In this document: piece after piece, positions 14,815 to 63,900 of the stretch
Layout of the letters: the number at the start of each line of letters is the position of its first letter
How positions within the stretch are numbered: the first letter of the stretch is position 1
Source of the DNA: an uncultured Verrucomicrobiae bacterium
Lineage (GTDB): Bacteria; Verrucomicrobiota; Verrucomicrobiia; Limisphaerales; BOG-1460
DNA length: 64,000 nucleotides
Assembly: GCA_963760675.1 (NCBI GenBank)
Contig: CAVXEG010000015.1
Span: forward strand, 110,935 to 174,934
Reading direction: 5' to 3'
The notes under the pieces: model-generated
What the model was told of the DNA's origin: nothing
Databases searched by the model: none
What the model saw: only the letters and a program-made list of their open reading frames with translations
Program-made: the position numbers and the translations under genes

Positions 14815-16206
14815 TTATTCAAAGCCAAGCCAGTCCAGTTCGACGTTGCCGTCGCTCCTCTGAGCAACAAAGAGATCATGCACGCCAGTCGGAGCGGTGG
14901 CGACCTTCGCATTCGCGACTTTCCAGTCAGAGCTTTTTCCAATCTCAACGGTTGCCGCCAATGGACCGTCCGGCTTGTCGAGATGGATTTCCACTGCTCC
15001 CCCGGTTGAAGACGCGGACCTGGCGTTCACAGATTTCAACGCGCTGTTTCCGAAATCAACCTTGTCAAAGCGAACCCAGGCGCTCTTCCCATTGAGAGCA
15101 ATTTTCCAGCCTTCAAACGTGTTTGAAGAATTGAGGAATGAAACGGACACATCGTTGGTCCCGCTGATTGCGCTGTAGCGGTCAATTTGAATTTTGCTCT
15201 TCGCATTCACAATCCCAACGCCGCGCAGAGTTGGAATGACTTTCTTGATCGTTCCGTCGTCATTGAAATACAAATAATCCGCGCGGATGGATCGGTTCTT
15301 GTCGAAGTTCGGGGACAAATCTTTGTCGTGATAGAACAGGTACCACTGCCCTTGTACTCCACCAGCGAATGATGCTCGGTCCAGCAATGGCTTTCGTTCT
15401 GGTCGGTGATGACTCCCGTCCAGGTGTACGGCCCCATCGCGTTGGTGGAAATTGAATACTCAAGCCGTTCAGACTCGAATCCCGCGTTGGTCACTGCGTG
15501 CGGATAGGTGAGGTAATAGATGCCGTTTCGTTTGAAGGCGAATGGACCTTCGATGAGTCCGGGTCGGGGAAGATTGGCAATGCGTTGCATGCGGTTTTCC
15601 CCTCCAAAACCGCGGCGCTGTGGAGCATTGGTGACGCCGGGCATCACTTCCAGTTCCACCATGTTGTCCTTCAGCTTGCCAACCATCAGGCCGCCGCCCC
15701 CGGTAAACAAGTAGGAGTTGCCATCATCGTCAATGAGCACGCACGGGATCAATCCCTCCGGCGCCCGTCACCGGCCGATCGAGGATCTTCCAGGGACCGG
15801 ATGGCTTCTCTGAAGTGGCAACCCCAATCCTGCCGCCAACGGGAAAATAGAAATAATAAGTGCCGTTTTTGAAAACGCAGTCCGGCGCCCACATGTCGTA
15901 GCCCTTGCGGTTGAGCCAGGGAACGTTCGTCTGATTGCAAATGACTCCGTGATCCGTCCAGTCCGTCAGGTTCTCGGAAGAGAACACATGATAGTCTTCC
16001 ATGCAGAACCAGTTGGCCCGCGCACCGCTGCCCGGAGGGACCGGAATATCGTGAGAAGGATAAACGTAAATCTTGCCTTCAAACACTCTGGCGGTCGGAT
16101 CGGCGGTAAATTGATCCATGATCAGCGGATTTGTGGCAAAGCTGTCGTTGGCGGAGAACACGCCCGCAAGGCTCAACGCCAGCAAATGAAACATGTGGCT
16201 CTTCAT
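14815..16206 (-). pseudogene. GH43 beta-xylosidase/alpha-L-arabinofuranosidase with C-terminal CBM6-like module, 2 frameshifts as assembled
   Basis: NPLIMDQFTADPTARVFEGKIYVYPSHD, MWAPDCVFKNGTYYFYFP, IDPCVLIDDDG, IEGPFAFKRNGIYYLTY and QWYLFYH are GH43 blades. The tail IQIDRYSAISG...VELDWLGFE is CBM6-like. Frame breaks at the G3 run 15745-15747 and at ~15370. Confidence 0.75.
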
Positions 16207-43632: not shown

Positions 43633-46491
43633 TTAGCCTCTTGTCTCGGCTGTTTCCTCCCGTGACGGGAACTCAAATGTCACCTTGCCCGCGTCATCCA
43701 TGACGAGATACGCGGGAAATGGCTTGCCTGCCTTGGAAATGAATTTGTCGATCAGATCAGTCCGTTTCGTTTCGAGCAACTTGTGAGCCTGCTCGCGCTC
43801 GATGGGCCGCTGCAAAATGACTTTGCTGATCTTGAATTTGCAGGGCTTCTTCTCCGCCTGCGACCGTTCGCAAACGTAAGCGGAATCCGTTTCAAACACT
43901 TTTCCGCCGCATTTCGGACATTTGCCGACAGGTTGTTGGCCGGTGAAATCAATTTTCGGTTGCGGCTCCTTTGGTGCATCCTTCGGCTTTCGCTTTTCGC
44001 TCGCGCGGCGCGAACTCAAATCTGACCCCGCCGTCCTTCAGCGCGAGAAACGCCTCGAACTTGCGTCCCGTTTTCTTCGAGACGAACCTTTGAGCAAATC
44101 CGTTTTGCCTTCGCTGAGCAGCTTGGTGATCTGTGCCGGGTCGATCTCCTGCTGCAAAATGATTTTGCCGGTCCGGAAATCGCAGGTCTTGTCCGGACCG
44201 ACGGATTTCTCGCAGACGTAATTCATCCCGGCGTCGAAGACACGCGCGCCGCACTTCGGGCATTTGCCGAGCGGCTCCTTGCCGGTGAAATCCACCGGCG
44301 CGGCAGCCTCACCATTCTCCGCCTCCTTCTCCTTGCCGAAATCAAACTCGACTTTGAACTCGGGCGTGCAGCTTCAGCACGGCTGCGAACGGAAAGCCCT
44401 GCTTGCTGCGGAATCCTTGCAACGGCCCGATCTGCTTTTCGCTGATGAGCTTTTCGACTTCCTCAATTTCAAACATCCGGCCGCCAAGCGTTTTCCGGAG
44501 CGAGAAATCGCACTTCACGCATTGAAACTCCTTGTAGCTTCTCGTGGATTTCGCCGCCGCATTTCGGGCACGGCACATTCAGCACGCCGAAATCGCCGGG
44601 AATGGTGTCGTGTTCGAACTTCTTCGCGCGGTCACAATGTGCCGCGTCATGTCGGCGATCTCTGACATGAACTCATCGCGGCTCATCTGGCGGCGCTGCA
44701 TCTGGTGCAAGCTTGAATTCCCAATCGCCGGTCAGTTCCGGCTTGGTCAGTTCCGGAATGCCCAGTCCGTTCAGCAGTTCCATCAGCGAAAACGCCTTCG
44801 CCGTCGCCTGCAAGCTCGCGGCCGTTGCGAACCATGTATTGCTCGTAGATCAAACCTTCGATGATTGCCGCGCGCGTCGCCGGCGTGCCGAGGCCTTTCT
44901 CGCTCATCGCCTCGCGCAATTCGTCGTCCTCGACCAGCTTTGCCCGCGCCTTCCATCGCGCTGAGCAGCGTCGCTTCCGTGAAGCGCGGCGGCGGCTTGG
45001 TCTGGTTCTGCTTCACCTCGATCGCGCTGGTCTTCACGGTTTCGTTCGGCTGCACCGGCGCGAGGTTCGGCGTGTCGTCGGTCTGCGCTTCCTTGCCATA
45101 GACCGCCAGCCAGCCCGGCGTTCACCAGCACTTTGCCCGTGCTCTTGAACGGCTCGCCCTCGACGCGCGTGATGCGCGTGGTCTCCAGAAATTCCGCCGC
45201 CGGATAAAAAATCGCGAGGAACCGCTTCGTCGACCATGTCGTAAAGCTTCTGCTCCGGCTCGCTCAAGTCCTTTGGCGCGAGCGTCGTGGGAATGATGGC
45301 GAAGTGATCGGAAACTTTTGCGTTGTTGAAGATGCGCTTGTTCGGCTGGACCCAGTCGCTCTTCAAAATCGTATCGGCAGAAGCGTGTAGCGCGTGATGA
45401 AAGCGGTGCCGACCGACCCATGGCCCGCGAGCATCTCCAGAGTATTCTTTACCGTGCCGATGTAATCCTCCGGCAACGCGCGCGAGTCCGTGCGCGGATA
45501 GGTGAGCACCTTGTGCCTTTCGTAAAGCGCCTGCGCCAGGCCCAGCGTGTTCTTCGCGCTGAAACCCAAACCGCCCGTTCGCCTCGCGCTGCAAACTGGT
45601 CAAATCGTAAAGCAGCGGCGAGAGCGATGTGGTCGGCTTGCTTTCCTCGGTGACGATGCCGGGTTTGCCGAGGCATTTGTCGCGGATGGCTTCCGCGCGC
45701 TGGCATTTCCCAGACGCGCTCCGGCTTGAGTTGCGTCGTCGCCGTCCTTGTCCGGTTTCGAAAACTTCTCGTCAAACCAGCGCCCGGTGTATTCGCCCGC
45801 CGCGGCGTCGAACGTGCCGATGACTTCCCAATAATCGCGCGAGACGAACTTCTTAATCTTCTCCTCGCGCTCGACCACGAATGGCCAGCGTCGGCGTCTG
45901 CACGCGGCCCGACCGTCGTTTTGAAAAAGCCGCCGGACTTGGAGTTGAACGCCGTCATCGCGCGCGTGCCGTTGATGCCGACGAGCCAGTCGGCTTCCGA
46001 ACGGCTGACCGCGGCATCGGCCAGCGGCAGCATCGAAGCATCGTCGCGCAAGCGCTGCGAAGCCTTCGCGGATCGCGGCGGGCGTCATGGATTGCAGCCA
46101 GAGCCGTTTGATCGGCTGCTTGGCCTTCGTGTATTGGACGATGTTGCGGAAGATCAGTTCGCCTTCGCGGCCGGCGTCGCAGGCGTTGATCAGCGCGTCC
46201 ACGTCCTTCCGTTTGATGAGCTTCGCCAGGACTTTGAGCCGGCTCTCGCTTCTCTCGATCGGCTGGAGGTCAAAATGCGGCGGAATGACCGGCAGGCATT
46301 TGAACGTCCACTTGCCGCGCGCGGCCTCGACGCCTTCGGGCGGGATCGAGTTCGAGCAGATGGCCGACGGCCGACGAGAGCACGTATTGGTCGCTCTCGA
46401 AGTAGTCGTCCTGCTTCTTGAAACCGCCGAGCGCCTTGGCGATGTCGCTGGCGACGGACGGCTTCTCCGCAATGATCAATGCTTTGCCCAT
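43633..46491 (-). pseudogene. topB: DNA topoisomerase III-like type IA topoisomerase with three C-terminal zinc-ribbon repeats, at least 8 frame changes as assembled
   Basis: Toprim N-terminus MGKALIIAEKPSVASDIAKALGG, DAGREGELIF, and [16 protein letters not shown] (active-site Tyr region). C-terminal repeats CPKCGGKVF...CKFKISK / CPKCGARVF...CDFRTGK. The coding signal jumps among at least 9 listed ORFs. Confidence 0.75.
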
Positions 46492-46909
46492 TTTCTTTCC
46501 TTACACGATCTTCCCGGAAGGAAGCAATCTTTGTGCAAGTTGGCGGAAATTGGCGCAAAGCGTTTTAGAAGTCAAAAGGGAAAACAAATCCGCGCGATTC
46601 AGGTAGCAAACTCCTGATCAATTAAGATGCGTGTTCTGCTGGTGAGACCGTGAAGCATTATCGCGTTTTTCCAAGACAGTGCTCGCGGAGTCCTTTAGGC
46701 TTTCGCCTTAGCGATACGAATAAGGTCGCAACGCCAAAGCAGATAAACAAACAAGAGCCAATAAGTGCAGCCGACCCAGTTAGTGGTGCAGCCGCATTGT
46801 ACCTGTTGCGGAACTTCGCCCGTGAGTAAACCTCCCACTCCAATTAAATGGCAAGCAGTCCTATCCCGATTAGAAAAGTCCTCATTGACCTTACAGGTTC
46901 CGAACAATG

Positions 46910-57706: not shown

Positions 57707-58054
57707 ATGTTTCGGCTCTCTGTAATCGGGTTTCTGATTGCGCTTGTCCAAAGCGCAACTGCTGCCGCATACGAAGCCACCAACCTCTGGGAAGATAACG
57801 TCGGTTACTACTACAGCGAGTCATCGCCGGCCGTGAATTCCGATGGGACGATCTATGTCGGAACATGGGACTGCAAATTTCTTTCGATCAGCTCCAATGG
57901 CTTGATTAATTGGAGTTACTCGACGGACGCTGACATCAGGTCGTCTCCGGCAATTGCTGCCGATGGGACCATTTACTTTGGCTGTCGCGACCGGCGGTTT
58001 TATGCGCTAACCGTCAAAGGAAAACTGAAATGGTCGATCACAACCGGCGGCTGA
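57707..58054 (+). pseudogene. PQQ-like beta-propeller repeat protein, truncated after ~2 blades at the junction
   Basis: Signal peptide plus the repeats SPAVNSDGTIYVG / [14 protein letters not shown] / KGKLKWS. The stop arises exactly where the foreign recD2 sequence begins. Confidence 0.55.
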
Positions 58055-58917
58055 GAGCCGTGCCCGACAAGAAGGCGGCGCTCTTGATCGTTGGTGACAT
58101 CGACCAGTTGCCATCGGTTGGGCCCGGGCAGGTGCTGGCGAAGGTCATCTCATCCGGCGCCGTGCCGGTGGTGCGCCTAACTGAGGTTTTCCGTCAGGCC
58201 GCGCAAAGCCGCATCATCACCAGCGCCCATCGGATCAATCAGGGTTCGATTCCTGATCTCCGTCCGCCCGCAGAGGACAGCGACTTCTACTTTGTGGAAG
58301 CGGAGAAAATCCCGAAGTCGCCGTGCCGCGTATTCTCGATCTGGTCAAGACACGGATTCCGAAGCGCTTCGGCTTCGATCCGATCCGCGACATCCAAGTG
58401 CTGTGTCCGATGAACCGTGGTGGTGTTGGCGCCCGCTCCCTCAATGTCGAACTGCAGGCCATATTGAACCCCGCCGGCGATCGCAAGGTCGAGCGCTTCG
58501 GTTGACGTCGCGCCCGGCGACAAGGTCATGCAGATCGAGAACGACTACGACAAGGAGGTCTATAACGGCGACATCGGCTACATCGATGACGTCAATCCTG
58601 ACGATGGCGAACTAACCGCGAGCTTTGATGGCCGGACCGTCACCTACGGGTTTGGCGAAGTTGACACCCCTGGTGCCGGCCTATGCCGCAACCATTCATA
58701 AGAGCCAGGGCTGCGAATACCCCCGCGTGCATAATACCCGTGATGACGCAGCATTACCCGATGCTGCAGCGAAACCTGCTCTACACCGGCGTCACGCGCG
58801 GCAAGAAGTTGGTCGTGCTGGTCGGGCGAGAAGAAAGCCGTCGCGATCGCCGTCCGGAACGTTTCAGGGCGACGGCGATGGTCGAAGCTGCAGGAGTGGC
58901 TGACGAAAAATCGATAA
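58050..58917 (+). pseudogene. recD2: RecD2-type helicase, 3' portion only, several frameshifts
   Basis: [75 protein letters not shown]. The N-terminal half is absent. The stop is at 58915-58917 after ...LQEWLTKNR. Confidence 0.7.
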
Positions 58918-59140
58918 ATCCGTGTCCGCTTTTCGGGTGCTGCGGAAGTCCAAGGCTGAATTGCCTCGGCGACTTCTGTCGCAAGTGACCCAAAGGCGAC
59001 GTGGGGCGGATGCAAAATGACCAACTACTGAGAGCGCGCAAAATCGCCACTCTGTTGCCCCCGAGAGACAGGCATCGGGCGTTCAGCATGGTATAGTGCC
59101 CAGGCTTTAAAGTCTGCTCCGGAGGTCGCACACGCCCAGA

Positions 59141-59982
59141 TCATAGCTTTCTCAACATGAGCCTTATGGACGCGAGACGCAGGAACGCGAGCGCCCTTCG
59201 ATTGAGATTTTCCCAATCCTTTGCGAGCCGTCTGCAACGCCCGAGCCATGCGAAGGTTCTTTCGACGACCCAGCGTTTTGGCAAGACGACAAAGCCTTTA
59301 GCTTGATCCGAGCGCTTGACGATTTCGACGTTCACGCGTGCCAGTATTTTCGTGACGGCGTCGCGGAACACCGGGCCTTGATAGCCGCCATCGGCGTAGA
59401 GTTTCAGCAAGAACGGATACAGGCCGAACATGGTCGCCATGACCAGTGCACCGCCATCGCGGTCCTGGATATCGGCGGCGTGCACGATGGCATGGATCAG
59501 CAGGCCTTGCGTGTCGACGAGAATATGCCGCTTCTTGCCCTTGATCTTCTTTCCCGCGTCGTAACCCGGCGGATCAATCGAGACCCCCCTTTTTCAGCGC
59601 TCTTCACGCTCTGGCTGTCGATCACCGCGGCAGTGGGACTCGCTTCTTTTGCAACGGCCTCGCGGCATTTCACATAGAGCTCGTGATGGATCAGATCGAG
59701 CGTGCCATCCCAACTCCATAGGTCGAAATAATCGTACAAGGTCGAGCGCGGCGGCAAGTCCTTCGGGATGGCCCGCCACTGACAGCCAGTCGACAGAATG
59801 TACATGAGGCCGTTCACCACCTCACGCATGATCACCGTGCGCTTGTCGCCGCCGCGCTTGCCCGGAGGGATCAAGGGCTCAACCAGACTCCATTCGTCGT
59901 CCGTCAAATCACTGGGATAGCGCAATCGGCTCCGGTCATAACGTCCGCGATTTTCGTTCGTCCACATCGGCGGCCCCTCCAA
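59141..59982 (-). CDS. IS5-family transposase in two overlapping frames (orfA 59497..59982, orfB 59141..~59590)
   Basis: LTDDEWSLVEPLIPP...STGCQWRAIP (DUF4096). YDAGKKIKGKKRHILVDTQG, YADGGYQG, VVERTFAWLGRCRRLAKDWE (DDE). orfB is in the -1 frame relative to orfA. Confidence 0.8.
59585..59595 (-). promoter_or_regulatory. possible -1 frameshift site (A5G6 on the coding strand) between transposase orfA and orfB
   Basis: The coding strand reads GCTGAAAAAGGGGGGTCTC exactly at the orfA/orfB overlap. In this error-prone region I cannot tell programmed slippage from a homopolymer length error. Confidence 0.3.
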
Positions 59983-60895
59983 ATCAGGCCGCCACCCTTA
60001 AATCACAAATAATTCATACGATTCAAGAACTCACCGGACAGACACTTAGGAGTGGGAAGACATGCGAAGTATTTTGGGGGCAAGTCTCGGTGCTGCACTT
60101 TTTTCCTCTGCCGCCATGGCTGCACCGCTTTACGTTTCTCCACCGCCCACCTGGACGGGGTTCTACGTCGGCGGCAATATCAGTCGGCTATAGCTGGGGC
60201 GAAGCTCACACCGATATTGCGGCCGACGTAGAACCCGTAGGTGGGCGGTGGAGAAGCGGTGCAGCCATGGCGGCAGAGGAAAAAAGTGGGCCAAAATACT
60301 TCGCATGTCTTCCACGCCTCAGTGTCTGTCCGGTGAGTTCTTGAATCGTATGATCCATTTGTAATTGCGAGGGTGGCGGCCTGAATTCGGAGGGGCCGCC
60401 GATGTGGACGAACGAAAATCGCGATTATCCCAGTGATTTGACGGACGACGAATGGAGTCTGGTTGAGCCCTTGATCCCTCCGGCAAGCGCGGCGGCGACA
60501 AGCGCACGGTGATGTGGTGCCGTTGAGGTTGTCGCCGCCGCGCTTGCCGGAGGGATCAAGGGCTCAACCAATTCCATTCGTCGTCCGTCAAATCACTGGG
60601 ATAGCGCAATCGGCTCCGGTCATAACGTCCGCGATTTTCGTTCGTCCACATCGGCGGCCCCTCCAAATCAGGCCGCCACCCTTAAATCACAAATAATTCA
60701 TAGAATTCAAGAACTCACCGGACAGACACTGAGGCGTGGGGGGAGAGACGTGAAGTATTTTGGGGGCAAGTCTCGGTGCTGCACTTTTTTCCTCTGCCGC
60801 CATGGCTGCACCGCTTTACGTTTCTCCACCGCCACCTGGACGGGGTTCTACGTCGGCGGCAATATCGGCTATAGCTGGGGCGAAGCTCACACCGA
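59828..60895. repeat. fold-back triplication (direct ~59828-60208, inverted ~60209-60512, direct ~60513-60895) of IS left end plus porin 5' end
   Basis: The same ~380-nt unit occurs three times in forward, reverse and forward orientation: the transposase 5' codons MWTNENR..., the IS terminus, and the porin start MRSILGASLGAALFSSAAMAAPLYVSPP. The inverted copy carries many small deletions and substitutions. Confidence 0.85.
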
Positions 60896-61625
60896 TGTGC
60901 GGGGATCGGGACCGCCACGAGTTCCTTGGCACTGCATACCCAACGAACTTCACCTTTGCCGGATCGAATTCATTCAGTTAAACGGGGCAATTGGTGGGGG
61001 CCAAATTGGGTACAATTTTCAACTGAACCGGAACTGGGTGGTGGGTATCGAAACCGACATTCAGGCCTCAGCTGAACGCGGAACCGGTTCATTTGTAAAC
61101 TCGTTCTCGACCCGTTCTGCACAGGGGCTGAAGCGACTTGTTTCTCAATCCAACCGCTCACCGGCACAGCGCTGACCAGCTATGAGGCCAAGATTGGCTG
61201 GTTCGGGACGCTTCGCGGTCGAGTGGGGTTCTTGCTAACTGATCATTTCTTAATCTATGGGACTGGCGGCCTAGCTTACGGGAATGTCCAGCTTTCGGGC
61301 GCAACTAATACCAACGCCACCACATTCGACATTTCTTGGCCTTCCCCTTCCCTTCGGTTCCAATGCAACAGCATTCAGTGTCTCTAGACGAATGTCGGGT
61401 ATTCAGTAGGCGTGGGTGCTGAGGGGTCTATTTGGCTTCCTCCGAGGTGGAGGTGGAAAGTAGAATATCTCTTTTAGACCTTGGGTCACTTGACGCTGCG
61501 CCAGCCTTCACGCTCGCCAGTCGCCTGGCTCCTTTTTCGCCTGTTACAGGCTCCATTGCGACGCATGCGCACTTCACCGACCAAATCCTGCGTATCGGTT
61601 TAAACTACGCATTTTGGGGCAATAA
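60750..61625 (+). pseudogene. outer-membrane beta-barrel porin (Omp25/RopB-like, Bradyrhizobiaceae type), multiple frameshifts
   Basis: WTGFYVGGNIGYSWGEAHTD, GAIGGGQIGYNFQLNRNWVVGIETDIQAS, SYEAKIGWFGTLRGRVGF, IYGTGGLAYGN, WKVEYL, HFTDQILRIGLNYAF. These are spread over 3 frames. The intact start codon is seen in the first repeat copy at 60062. The 3' end is approximate. Confidence 0.6.
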
Positions 61626-61751
61626 AGGGCTGCCGGCGGCGGCGACCATCGCTAAGTTCCGGACCTCGACGGTCCACCGAATACAATTATCGGGCGCGAG
61701 GTCTTCGACGCTGCGTCGTCACGCCCGGCCGCCTACCGCGAACGTCCGGAA

Positions 61752-61838
61752 GTGGCACTCCTCGCCAATTCGCCGCGCTGCAACGTGTCGTCTGCAGCTG
61801 AGGGCAGACCCGCCGTCATCGGCGTGACAGCGTGACGG
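61752..61838 (+). repeat. dispersed ~85-nt repeat, copy 1
   Basis: TGGCACTCCTCGCCAATTCGCCGCGCTGCAACG..GCAGCTGAGGGCAGACC matches 63814-63900 at roughly 80 percent identity by eye, in the same orientation. Confidence 0.7.
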
Positions 61839-61966: not shown

Positions 61967-63749
61967 CTATGTTTTGAAGCGCCCGGCCGTGCTGGTCGGC
62001 TCTGCCTGGCCGGGCGCGAGCAGGGGAAGTGTCATGCAAATGGTCGTGCCCTTTCCTAGCGCGGAGACGAGCGTGATTCTACCGCCGAGCTGTTGCGTCA
62101 CGAGATTATGGACGATGTAGAGGCCGAGGCCGGTACTGCCCTGCGCACGTCTCGTGGTGAAGAACGGATCGAAAACGTGACGCTGAACGTCCTCCGGAAT
62201 GCCGCTGCCATCATCCGAGAAAGTGATCTCGACCTGCTCCATGCCGAGGCGACGCGCCTTGATCAGCACGTGTCCACCAGGCCCATCGGTGAAGCCGTGA
62301 GTGACGGCGTTGAAGATGAGGTTGGTCAGCACCTGTCCGTAAGCGCCCGGGTAGCTGTCCAGGGTGATGTCGGAGGGCATCTCGAGCGCAAGTGAATCTC
62401 GAGATTTCGGCAGGCCCGGCCGCACACTGGCCACGATCTGCTCGGTCACAAGTTTGAGGTCAAAGGTGCGCCGATCGGTATGGCTGCGATCGACGGCGAC
62501 TTGCTTGAACGATTAAATCAGTTCTGTGGCGCGCTGGAGATTCGCGACGAGTTGGTTTGCACCGTCGCGACAACTGTCAGCGAACTCGGCGAGCAGGGAA
62601 CGGCGCACCGGACCCGAGGCGATCTGGTCGGCGAAGTTCGCGCAGCGGTGCGCGAGCGTCGAGGCCACCGTAAGGCTGATGCCGACCGGGCTATTGATCT
62701 CGTGTGCAACCCCCGCGACGAGACCGCCGAGTGCGGCGAGTCTCTCGGTTTCGATGAGATAGCGTTGCGTTTCGCTGGCGTGCAGAGCTGCTTCGGCCAA
62801 CCTCCTCTTGTCCCGGATTTCGGCAAACCGCGCAGCAAGAACCAATGCGCCGATCGTCACAAGTAGAATGCTGACTTGGGCCGCCAGGACGCGCTCGGCC
62901 ACTGGAAGACCCGGATTACCGAAATAGCCAATGCCAAAGGTGGTCGTCCAAACGATTGAAAGGCTAACGATGAACGCGGCTGCCGCGGCGAAAACCGGGC
63001 GGCAACGAGCCGCAAGCCACAACAGCGGCACGAACAACAAGGCGACCGGCCCAACGGTCGCCAAAAGCTCCGACCGTTGGAAAATGACAAGTCCACTCAC
63101 CAGGGCTAGCGCCGCGACCGCCAAAGCACCTTCGATCGAGCTCGCTCCGCGACGGCGGGTCGCGCGAGGATGAGACGAGCTCTATCAGCAACGGTGCAAC
63201 CGTGATTATTCCCAGTCCGTCCGATGCGAGCCAGTGCTGCCAAGTCGTCAATATCGGCGTCGTCGTACTGTGAAACAATTTGAATGCTACGGCCCCGCCG
63301 ATCCCCGAGACAGCGGCCCCTATGATCGCTGTCGCTGCCAATCCCAGCACGTTGCGCAGCTTGCTCAGTCTGAAATCCGAACCGAAGTAATGCCCAATGA
63401 GCCATGCCGTGAGCACGGCTTCCCCTGCATTGCATAAGGCGAAGAGAGCAGTGCTCCAGAGATTCCGGTCGCCCAAGAGATTCGCCACGATGGTCGCAGC
63501 CATCGTGCCGACAACAACCGGCCATCGCGCCCGGGACCCGAGAGCGATCAGAACGCCGGCGGACACACCTGCGGCGGGCCAGAAGACGGCGACACCCTCA
63601 GGTTTGGTCAGCAGAGCAAGGCTAAGCCGCGCTGCTACGAAATATACGATGCCGACCGCGACAGCGAGCCCGATCGAGCCAACCCACCGCGTCAGGTCGA
63701 TGCCGGTGGACAGCTCATGCTGAACCTGTTTTCGTAGATTCTGCCGCAC
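61967..63749 (-). pseudogene. MASE1-domain sensor histidine kinase, 2 or more frameshifts as assembled
   Basis: N-terminal multi-TM MASE1-like region (VYFVAARLSLALLTKPEGVAVFWPAAGV). H box LVAGVAHEINSPV. N/G boxes NLIFNAVTHG, DDGSGIP, GSTGLGLYIV. The pieces lie in ORFs 62964..63749, 62513..63124 and 61967..62449. Confidence 0.7.
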
Positions 63750-63813: not shown

Positions 63814-63900
63814 TGGCACTCTTCGCCAATTCGCTGCGCTGCAACGGCGCGTCCGCAGCTGAGGGCAGACCGTCCGTGGCGGGCATGGCATCGTCACGGC
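63814..63900 (+). repeat. dispersed ~85-nt repeat, copy 2
   Basis: See copy 1. It lies just upstream of the histidine kinase start. Confidence 0.7.

Follow-up and report, generated by a model that had tools for sequence, protein, structure and literature searches.

Organisation of the locus

The locus comprises a porin gene of the OMP_b-brl family and an IS5-family insertion sequence (IS) that abuts its start. It lies in a 64-kb stretch of DNA, the whole of which is referred to here as the window, and its features are listed in Table 1. The IS carries a full-length transposase gene, with NCBIfam NF033580 matched over positions 1-258 of 258 after two transposase frames had been joined at an A5G6 run (GAAAAAGGGGGG; approximately 59585-59596, minus strand). 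As the length of this run is identical in high-depth Illumina-derived IS contigs, it is not a sequencing error, and the site looks like a native, possibly programmed -1, frameshift. The terminal inverted repeats of the element are present and imperfect. High-depth IS contigs from soil metagenomes match the window from 59142 to 60040-60050 with no gaps, most of them ending at 60045-60050.

To the left of the IS, positions 59040-59095 match the upstream region of the porin in the related metagenome contig L001 (positions 73-128), and contigs in runs X2 and X11 carry the empty site, joining 59100 to 60054. The matching upstream region and the empty-site contigs together establish that the insertion is real, and it is apparently recent. 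The IS is located 14 nt upstream of the porin ATG and parts the gene from its native upstream region. A full-length DDE transposase, inverted repeats, a target-site duplication (TSD) and an empty site in relatives are thus all in place, as expected of an IS5-family element.

Table 1. Coordinates of the features described in the text (positions in the window).
Feature	Position	Strand	Remarks
IS5-family insertion sequence, 936 bp	59110-60045	-	Pfam DUF4096 and DDE_Tnp_1
TTA target-site duplication	left 59107-59109, right 60046-60048		read from the sequence
Copy A	59831-60222	+	transposase codons 1 to ~45-50, IS right end, TSD, porin 5' UTR, porin codons 1-53
Turn-around 1	60170-60222		stems 60170-60184 and 60210-60222; loop 60185-60209, single occurrence
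Copy B, inverted middle copy	60210-60513, possibly to 60532	-	deletion-rich; ~12% shorter than the matching part of A
Turn-around 2	60514-60528		~15 nt assignable to neither arm
Copy C, second forward copy	60529-60902	+	continues into the remainder of the porin gene
Porin gene body, OMP_b-brl family	60750-61630	+	spread over three reading frames
Stretch at raw-read level	60180-61800 (end approximate)		begins at turn-around 1
Inverted-junction k-mer site	around CACCGATATTGCGGCCGACGTAGAACC
Predicted native (collapsed) join sequence	CACCGATATTGCGG-GGATCGG
Topoisomerase gene	43654-46500	-	Toprim, Topoisom_bac and three C-terminal zinc-ribbon repeats
GH43-CBM6 gene	14815-16206	-	three overlapping ORFs in different frames; Pfam 2-125, 124-250, then CBM6

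A direct-inverted-direct triplication

The end of the IS and the start of the porin gene occur three times in succession, as copies A, B and C, the middle one inverted. A sequence-only reading of this DNA had claimed a direct-inverted-direct layout here, and repeat finding, pairwise alignment and self-BLAST all bear it out. That reading was also correct in the content that it gave to the unit (transposase start, IS terminus and porin start), which holds the first ~45-50 transposase codons and ~53 porin codons and measures approximately 385 nt. The self-similarity check that it had proposed for the region gave two palindromes and one direct repeat in self-BLAST, with bit scores of 562-669. By self-BLAST and pairwise alignment the palindromes lie at 59831-60513 and 60211-60868 and overlap one another, and the direct repeat pairs 59843-60222 with 60529-60902 at a spacing of 684-686 nt. 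With these scores, and with no comparable repeat found by self-BLAST in the rest of the 64-kb window, the triplication is far beyond chance. Three landmarks fall within the unit, namely the transposase ATG (59967, minus strand), the IS right end (60045) and the porin ATG (60062), and tblastn places porin residues 13-50 on the minus strand of copy B, in two frames. Three copies with the middle one inverted is the layout of a tandem inversion duplication (TID), or DUP-TRP/INV-DUP.

The comparison with relatives covered contigs from eight public metagenome runs. Related soil and peat metagenome contigs have a single porin 5' end; the X2 contig runs from 60054-60217 straight to 60898-61085, and L001 carries an uninterrupted porin gene with a 298-aa product, P0001. 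No inverted junctions were found in the contigs of the eight runs, and an opposite-strand joint at 59709/60410 was dismissed, the IS contig behind it being alignable to A and B alike. An exact scan of JGI metagenome contigs gave 0 hits for the IS-porin junction and 0 for the fold-back junction. When GTDB representative genomes were scanned with the porin no close genome was found, the best hit having 38% amino-acid identity, and a k-mer search of public runs recovered relatives only, which held at most 0.31 of the words, mostly from the IS and conserved genes. Exact look-ups with the protein of an intact gene close by had no hits.

Differences between the copies

Copies A and C share 93.9% identity, with 9 mismatches and 15 gap columns; for A against reverse-complemented B the figure is 80.4%, with 10 mismatches and 64 gap columns. 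All but nine of the latter columns (55/64) are deletions in B, runs of 24, 16 and 7 nt among them, and B has a length of 323 nt against 369 nt for A. The sequence-only reading already had the middle copy deviating by many deletions and substitutions; the damage that it noted at the porin start codon of copy C is real, GACATGCGAAG having become GAC--GTGAAG. The copies are therefore not near-identical in the way that those of a tandem inversion duplication should be, at 80% and 94% and with frame-breaking indels. Judged from the alignments, differences so dominated by indels look like sequencing errors and not like the outcome of evolution.

Two differences from A are common to B and C: CCC has become CC at 59862-59864, and TTAGGAG has become TGAGGCG over the TSD (approximately 60046-60053). 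These common variants indicate that B and C were copied from one template. This fits copies made inside one molecule, and a common template could also be the product of a real rearrangement.

Sequence quality across the locus

Between 59835 and 60179 copy A shows 0 indels, both against independent Illumina-derived contigs and against L001. From 60180 on the sequence is noisy, and it is so in B, in C and in the single-copy porin body alike. The coding part of the porin (60740-61640) differs from that of L001 by 20 gap events (15 deletions and 5 insertions) in approximately 900 nt, and tblastn of the porin body against the intact relative P0001 requires at least seven frame changes. Gaps and substitutions number 34 each over 60755-61760 in the closest contig, from run X1. 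By comparison, related contigs align without a gap to either flank (59142-60050 and 62307-62998). A codon-usage Viterbi decode could call no reading frame between 59986 and 61548.

A ratio of gaps to substitutions near 1, together with frame-breaking events of 1-2 nt, is the pattern of sequencing error and not of pseudogene decay. Natural decay of the porin was rejected on these grounds, the gaps equalling the substitutions in the closest contig, and a second relative (run X11) confirming that several 1-nt deletions in the porin are specific to the window. Since the loss of quality coincides exactly with junction 1 and persists at raw level into unique sequence, we infer that one read alone supports the path past 60180 and that the reads behind the polished copy A take another course. 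Clipping of native reads at a false junction is a possible reason why the reads that polished copy A left the porin body unpolished.

Genes riddled with frameshifts also occur elsewhere in the window, which points to a patchily polished assembly. The topoisomerase gene, with approximately 17 frame switches and no repeat or fold-back nearby, forms a second region at raw-read level; after frame correction its product, of 942 aa, aligns in a single block with positions 6-410 of the 411 in the Topoisom_bac model (E = 1.8e-91). The GH43-CBM6 gene is broken in a similar manner (Table 1). Deletions predominate, and of the single bases dropped about a quarter fall in short homopolymer runs; both traits suggest Nanopore data, and this was probably the sequencing platform.

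Structure of the turn-arounds

The loop at turn-around 1 had been put at ~33 nt in the sequence-only reading; it is in fact 25 nt long and is flanked by two short stems. Past the right stem the sequence is the complement of that before the left stem, with the loop passed through once. The parental sequence at this junction would be GCAATATCGG-N23-CCGATATTGC, also written GGCGGCAATATCGG-N23-CCGATATTGCGG, with a perfect inverted repeat of 10 bp, or 12/13 with one mismatch, and its right stem is backed by both L001 and the X2 contig. It is predicted to fold at -16.4 kcal/mol (z = -4.5), and 0 of 200 shuffled sequences were as stable. Stems of at least 10 bp with loops of at most 40 nt number only four in 63 kb, which puts the chance of a random break on such a hairpin at approximately 0.004.

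This structure is the expected product of a 3' end that snaps back on a hairpin and is then extended. Since junction 1 coincides with a native quasi-palindrome of 10-13 bp, template switching by a polymerase within a single physical molecule is a better explanation than a purely informatic join, and the hairpin would be equally usable by a template switch in vivo. A 4-nt insertion, AGTC, in copy A (60181-60184) has no counterpart in B, in C or in any of the relatives. It lies within the left stem of the hairpin, exactly at the change from clean to noisy sequence, and may be a polishing artefact at the edge of a clipped alignment.

At turn-around 2 split alignment found break points from 60515 to 60528 equally good, and any quasi-palindrome or microhomology of the kind present at junction 1 is blurred here by errors. 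The parental region (59825-59841) contains a small quasi-palindrome, CGCATGATCACCGTGCG, which includes TGATCA and is not statistically unusual.

Under the Breakinator definition, a fold-back consists of consecutive segments that map to one locus in opposite orientations and whose break points are no more than 200 bp apart. Both the A/B junction, with break points 25 nt apart (60184 vs 60210), and the B/C junction, where the offset is at most ~20 nt, fall under this definition. In its two successive turns the structure behaves like an atypical, double-switch form of the fold-back artefact.

Origin of the triplication

We consider that the triplication is probably a single-molecule fold-back chimera that was used as consensus, and most likely it is absent from the genome of the bacterium. 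That a fold-back chimeric read had served as consensus was already the suggestion of the sequence-only reading, and that much is upheld by the indel-dominated differences, the quality step at junction 1, the noise in the single-copy part of the porin and the single copy in relatives. The kind of chimera calls for refinement. A read of a template followed by its complement turns around once, so that the double turn, its first junction placed on a hairpin, suggests a chimeric molecule made by template switching.

In the sequence of events that we propose, one long read would have come from a chimeric DNA molecule on which a polymerase had switched template twice. A first pass would have led forward through the IS end and the porin start; the nascent strand would then have snapped back at the native hairpin-forming quasi-palindrome, at porin codons ~37-53, with ~370 nt copied backwards before a second switch, inside the transposase gene, sent synthesis forward again through the porin. 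If this chimeric read was the sole bridge over the porin in a low-coverage, patchily polished assembly, its raw sequence would for that reason have been kept in the consensus from ~60180 to ~61800. The template switching presumably took place outside the cell. In the true genome the IS is most likely followed, after 14 nt, by the porin, and the 680 nt from 60223 to 60902 are missing.

Fold-back artefacts make up ~0.55-0.6% of ONT genomic-DNA reads and apparently originate in library preparation (PMC12870357). Our structure resembles these reads (Heinz, Meyerson & Li 2026, PMC12870357) in that neighbouring segments map to one locus in opposite orientations and are hardly separated by foreign sequence, in that library preparation is a probable source and in that the structure is unmatched in relatives. 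It differs from them in its course: they are usually whole-read palindromes with one mid-read fold, whereas here there are two folds, 385 nt apart, after which the sequence continues into unique DNA. When an inverted duplicate passes through a nanopore, its second arm is base-called poorly and comes out too short because bases are missed (PMC7229812), and copy B, which follows its complement, is likewise miscalled and shortened, with its 55 deleted columns. The inverted duplicates of Spealman et al. 2020 (PMC7229812) were, however, real ODIRA-type copy-number variants confirmed by Illumina data, whereas the structure described here is known from assembled sequence alone. Chimeras made by polymerases are mostly inverted, with priming at 2-21 nt of complementarity (PMC1855051). 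Like the template-switch chimeras of multiple displacement amplification (Lasken & Stockwell 2007, PMC1855051), the triplication has an inverted junction that would have been primed by short complementarity within the same molecule, here of 10-13 nt; unlike them, it comes with no sign of sample amplification and contains a double switch that restores the forward direction.

A different explanation is a genuine tandem inversion duplication, present in the genome or in a subpopulation, in which two template switches at a replication fork, the first of them at the porin quasi-palindrome, produced the three copies; the noise would then be owed to low coverage and to poor base-calling of inverted repeats. 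We regard this as unlikely. The direct-inverted-direct layout is exactly that of such a duplication, and poor quality in B is expected of a physically real inverted repeat in nanopore data (PMC7229812). The two variants common to B and C would also suit it, as would the native quasi-palindrome (10-13 bp, loop of 23 nt) at junction 1, a coincidence that has p about 0.004 at a random position. An inverted-repeat effect cannot, however, account for the unique porin body, which is equally noisy. Nor does this explanation sit well with copies of only 80-94% identity that carry frame-breaking indels, with a copy C that is noisy where A is clean, or with the single copy in relatives. Moreover, two near-perfect palindromes of ~350 bp, with spacers of 15-25 nt, and direct repeats of 385 bp would be very unstable in a bacterial chromosome. 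A transient, low-frequency duplication caught by one read is a priori far less likely than an artefact class of ~0.6%.

Tandem inversion duplication in Salmonella was reportedly the subject of work by Kugelberg et al. in 2010. The triplication is like the duplications of Salmonella and the human DUP-TRP/INV-DUP structures in its direct-inverted-direct form and in having a junction at a short quasi-palindrome. In real tandem inversion duplications, however, the copies are identical at the start and are carried by many molecules under selection, whereas here the copies differ by sequencing-type indels and the support is apparently that of a single molecule. The specific proposal of a recent genuine duplication in an uncultured soil or peat bacterium, made by intra-fork template switching at the native porin quasi-palindrome beside a fresh IS5-family insertion and captured in an environmental genome, seems to us improbable. 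If true, it would add a rare natural case to the tandem inversion duplications of laboratory selection systems.

A purely informatic misassembly, in which two separate fold-back reads were joined or a wrong path was taken through the graph and no A-B-C molecule existed, is very unlikely. Long-read assemblers are known to retain chimeric paths at low coverage, and the change of quality at junction 1 agrees with such a join, but it would require two independent fold-back reads, folded 385 nt from each other, where coverage is very low. Besides, the contig would be led back leftwards and not forward by an ordinary fold-back read; the excess of deletions in B and the variants that it has in common with C fit one read-through molecule, and the hairpin at junction 1 also speaks against a join made by software.

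Inversion driven by the IS or by a site-specific system (an invertible promoter segment, or an inversion made by the transposase), assembled from mixed orientations, is hardly credible: an intact IS5-family element does abut the porin start, but the junctions lie inside the transposase gene (~59831) and the porin (~60215) and not at the IS ends (59110 and 60045), an invertible segment should leave a single inverted copy with unique sequence on either side and not three copies, and no matching boundary inverted repeats were found at the junctions. The alternative in the sequence-only reading, a rearrangement seeded by IS activity, is unsupported for the same reason, neither junction being at an IS end. 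A PacBio read with a missed adapter was also rejected, since it would repeat the whole insert and could not link unique flanks.

With a single-molecule chimera as the preferred explanation, the ~680 nt from 60223 to 60902 should be removed before annotation and the sequence from 60180 to 61800 re-polished. Left uncorrected, the sequence leads to a porin miscalled as fragments and to the recording of a false structural variant. On this explanation the case is a clear example of how, at low coverage, a fold-back or template-switch chimera can persist in the interior of a contig as well as at its end, and of how it may be recognised, by a step in quality where the sequence first turns and by a second arm rich in deletions.

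Other features of the window

The broken region at the GH43 gene probably extends to 18520. Up to that point there are further overlapping ORFs, for a second GH43 fragment and for a ricin-type lectin, which suggest that additional frames are disrupted.

To the left of the IS there is an abrupt break at 58040-58052, where a beta-propeller ORF that is cut short (57707-58054) runs up against a RecD-like helicase gene of which the 3' two-thirds are present (58052-58910). The helicase fragment comprises AAA_30 from position ~106, SH3_13 and UvrD_C_2, and contains 3-4 frameshifts. Left of 58052 the metagenome contigs take a different course from the window, and the break may reflect a genuine deletion or fusion, or else a further chimeric join.

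Beyond the porin, on the minus strand, a gene for a sensor histidine kinase (61967-63749) encodes a MASE1-like N-terminus, HisKA and HATPase. It has an in-frame TAA at 62513-62515, a position at which every related contig has CAA, and also a change of frame near 63000-63124. Each of these lesions could be either a sequencing error or a real inactivation.

An intergenic repeat of ~86 nt occurs at 61753-61838 and at 63814-63899, and had no tRNA or Rfam match, nor was any such match found elsewhere in the 57-64 kb region. The two copies are 81% identical and have the core TGGCACTC.TCGCCAATTCGC.GCGCTGCAACG...GCAGCTGAGGGCAGACC. This repeat is very abundant in soil and peat metagenome contigs, where it reaches a depth of 120-350 against 5-15 in the flanks.
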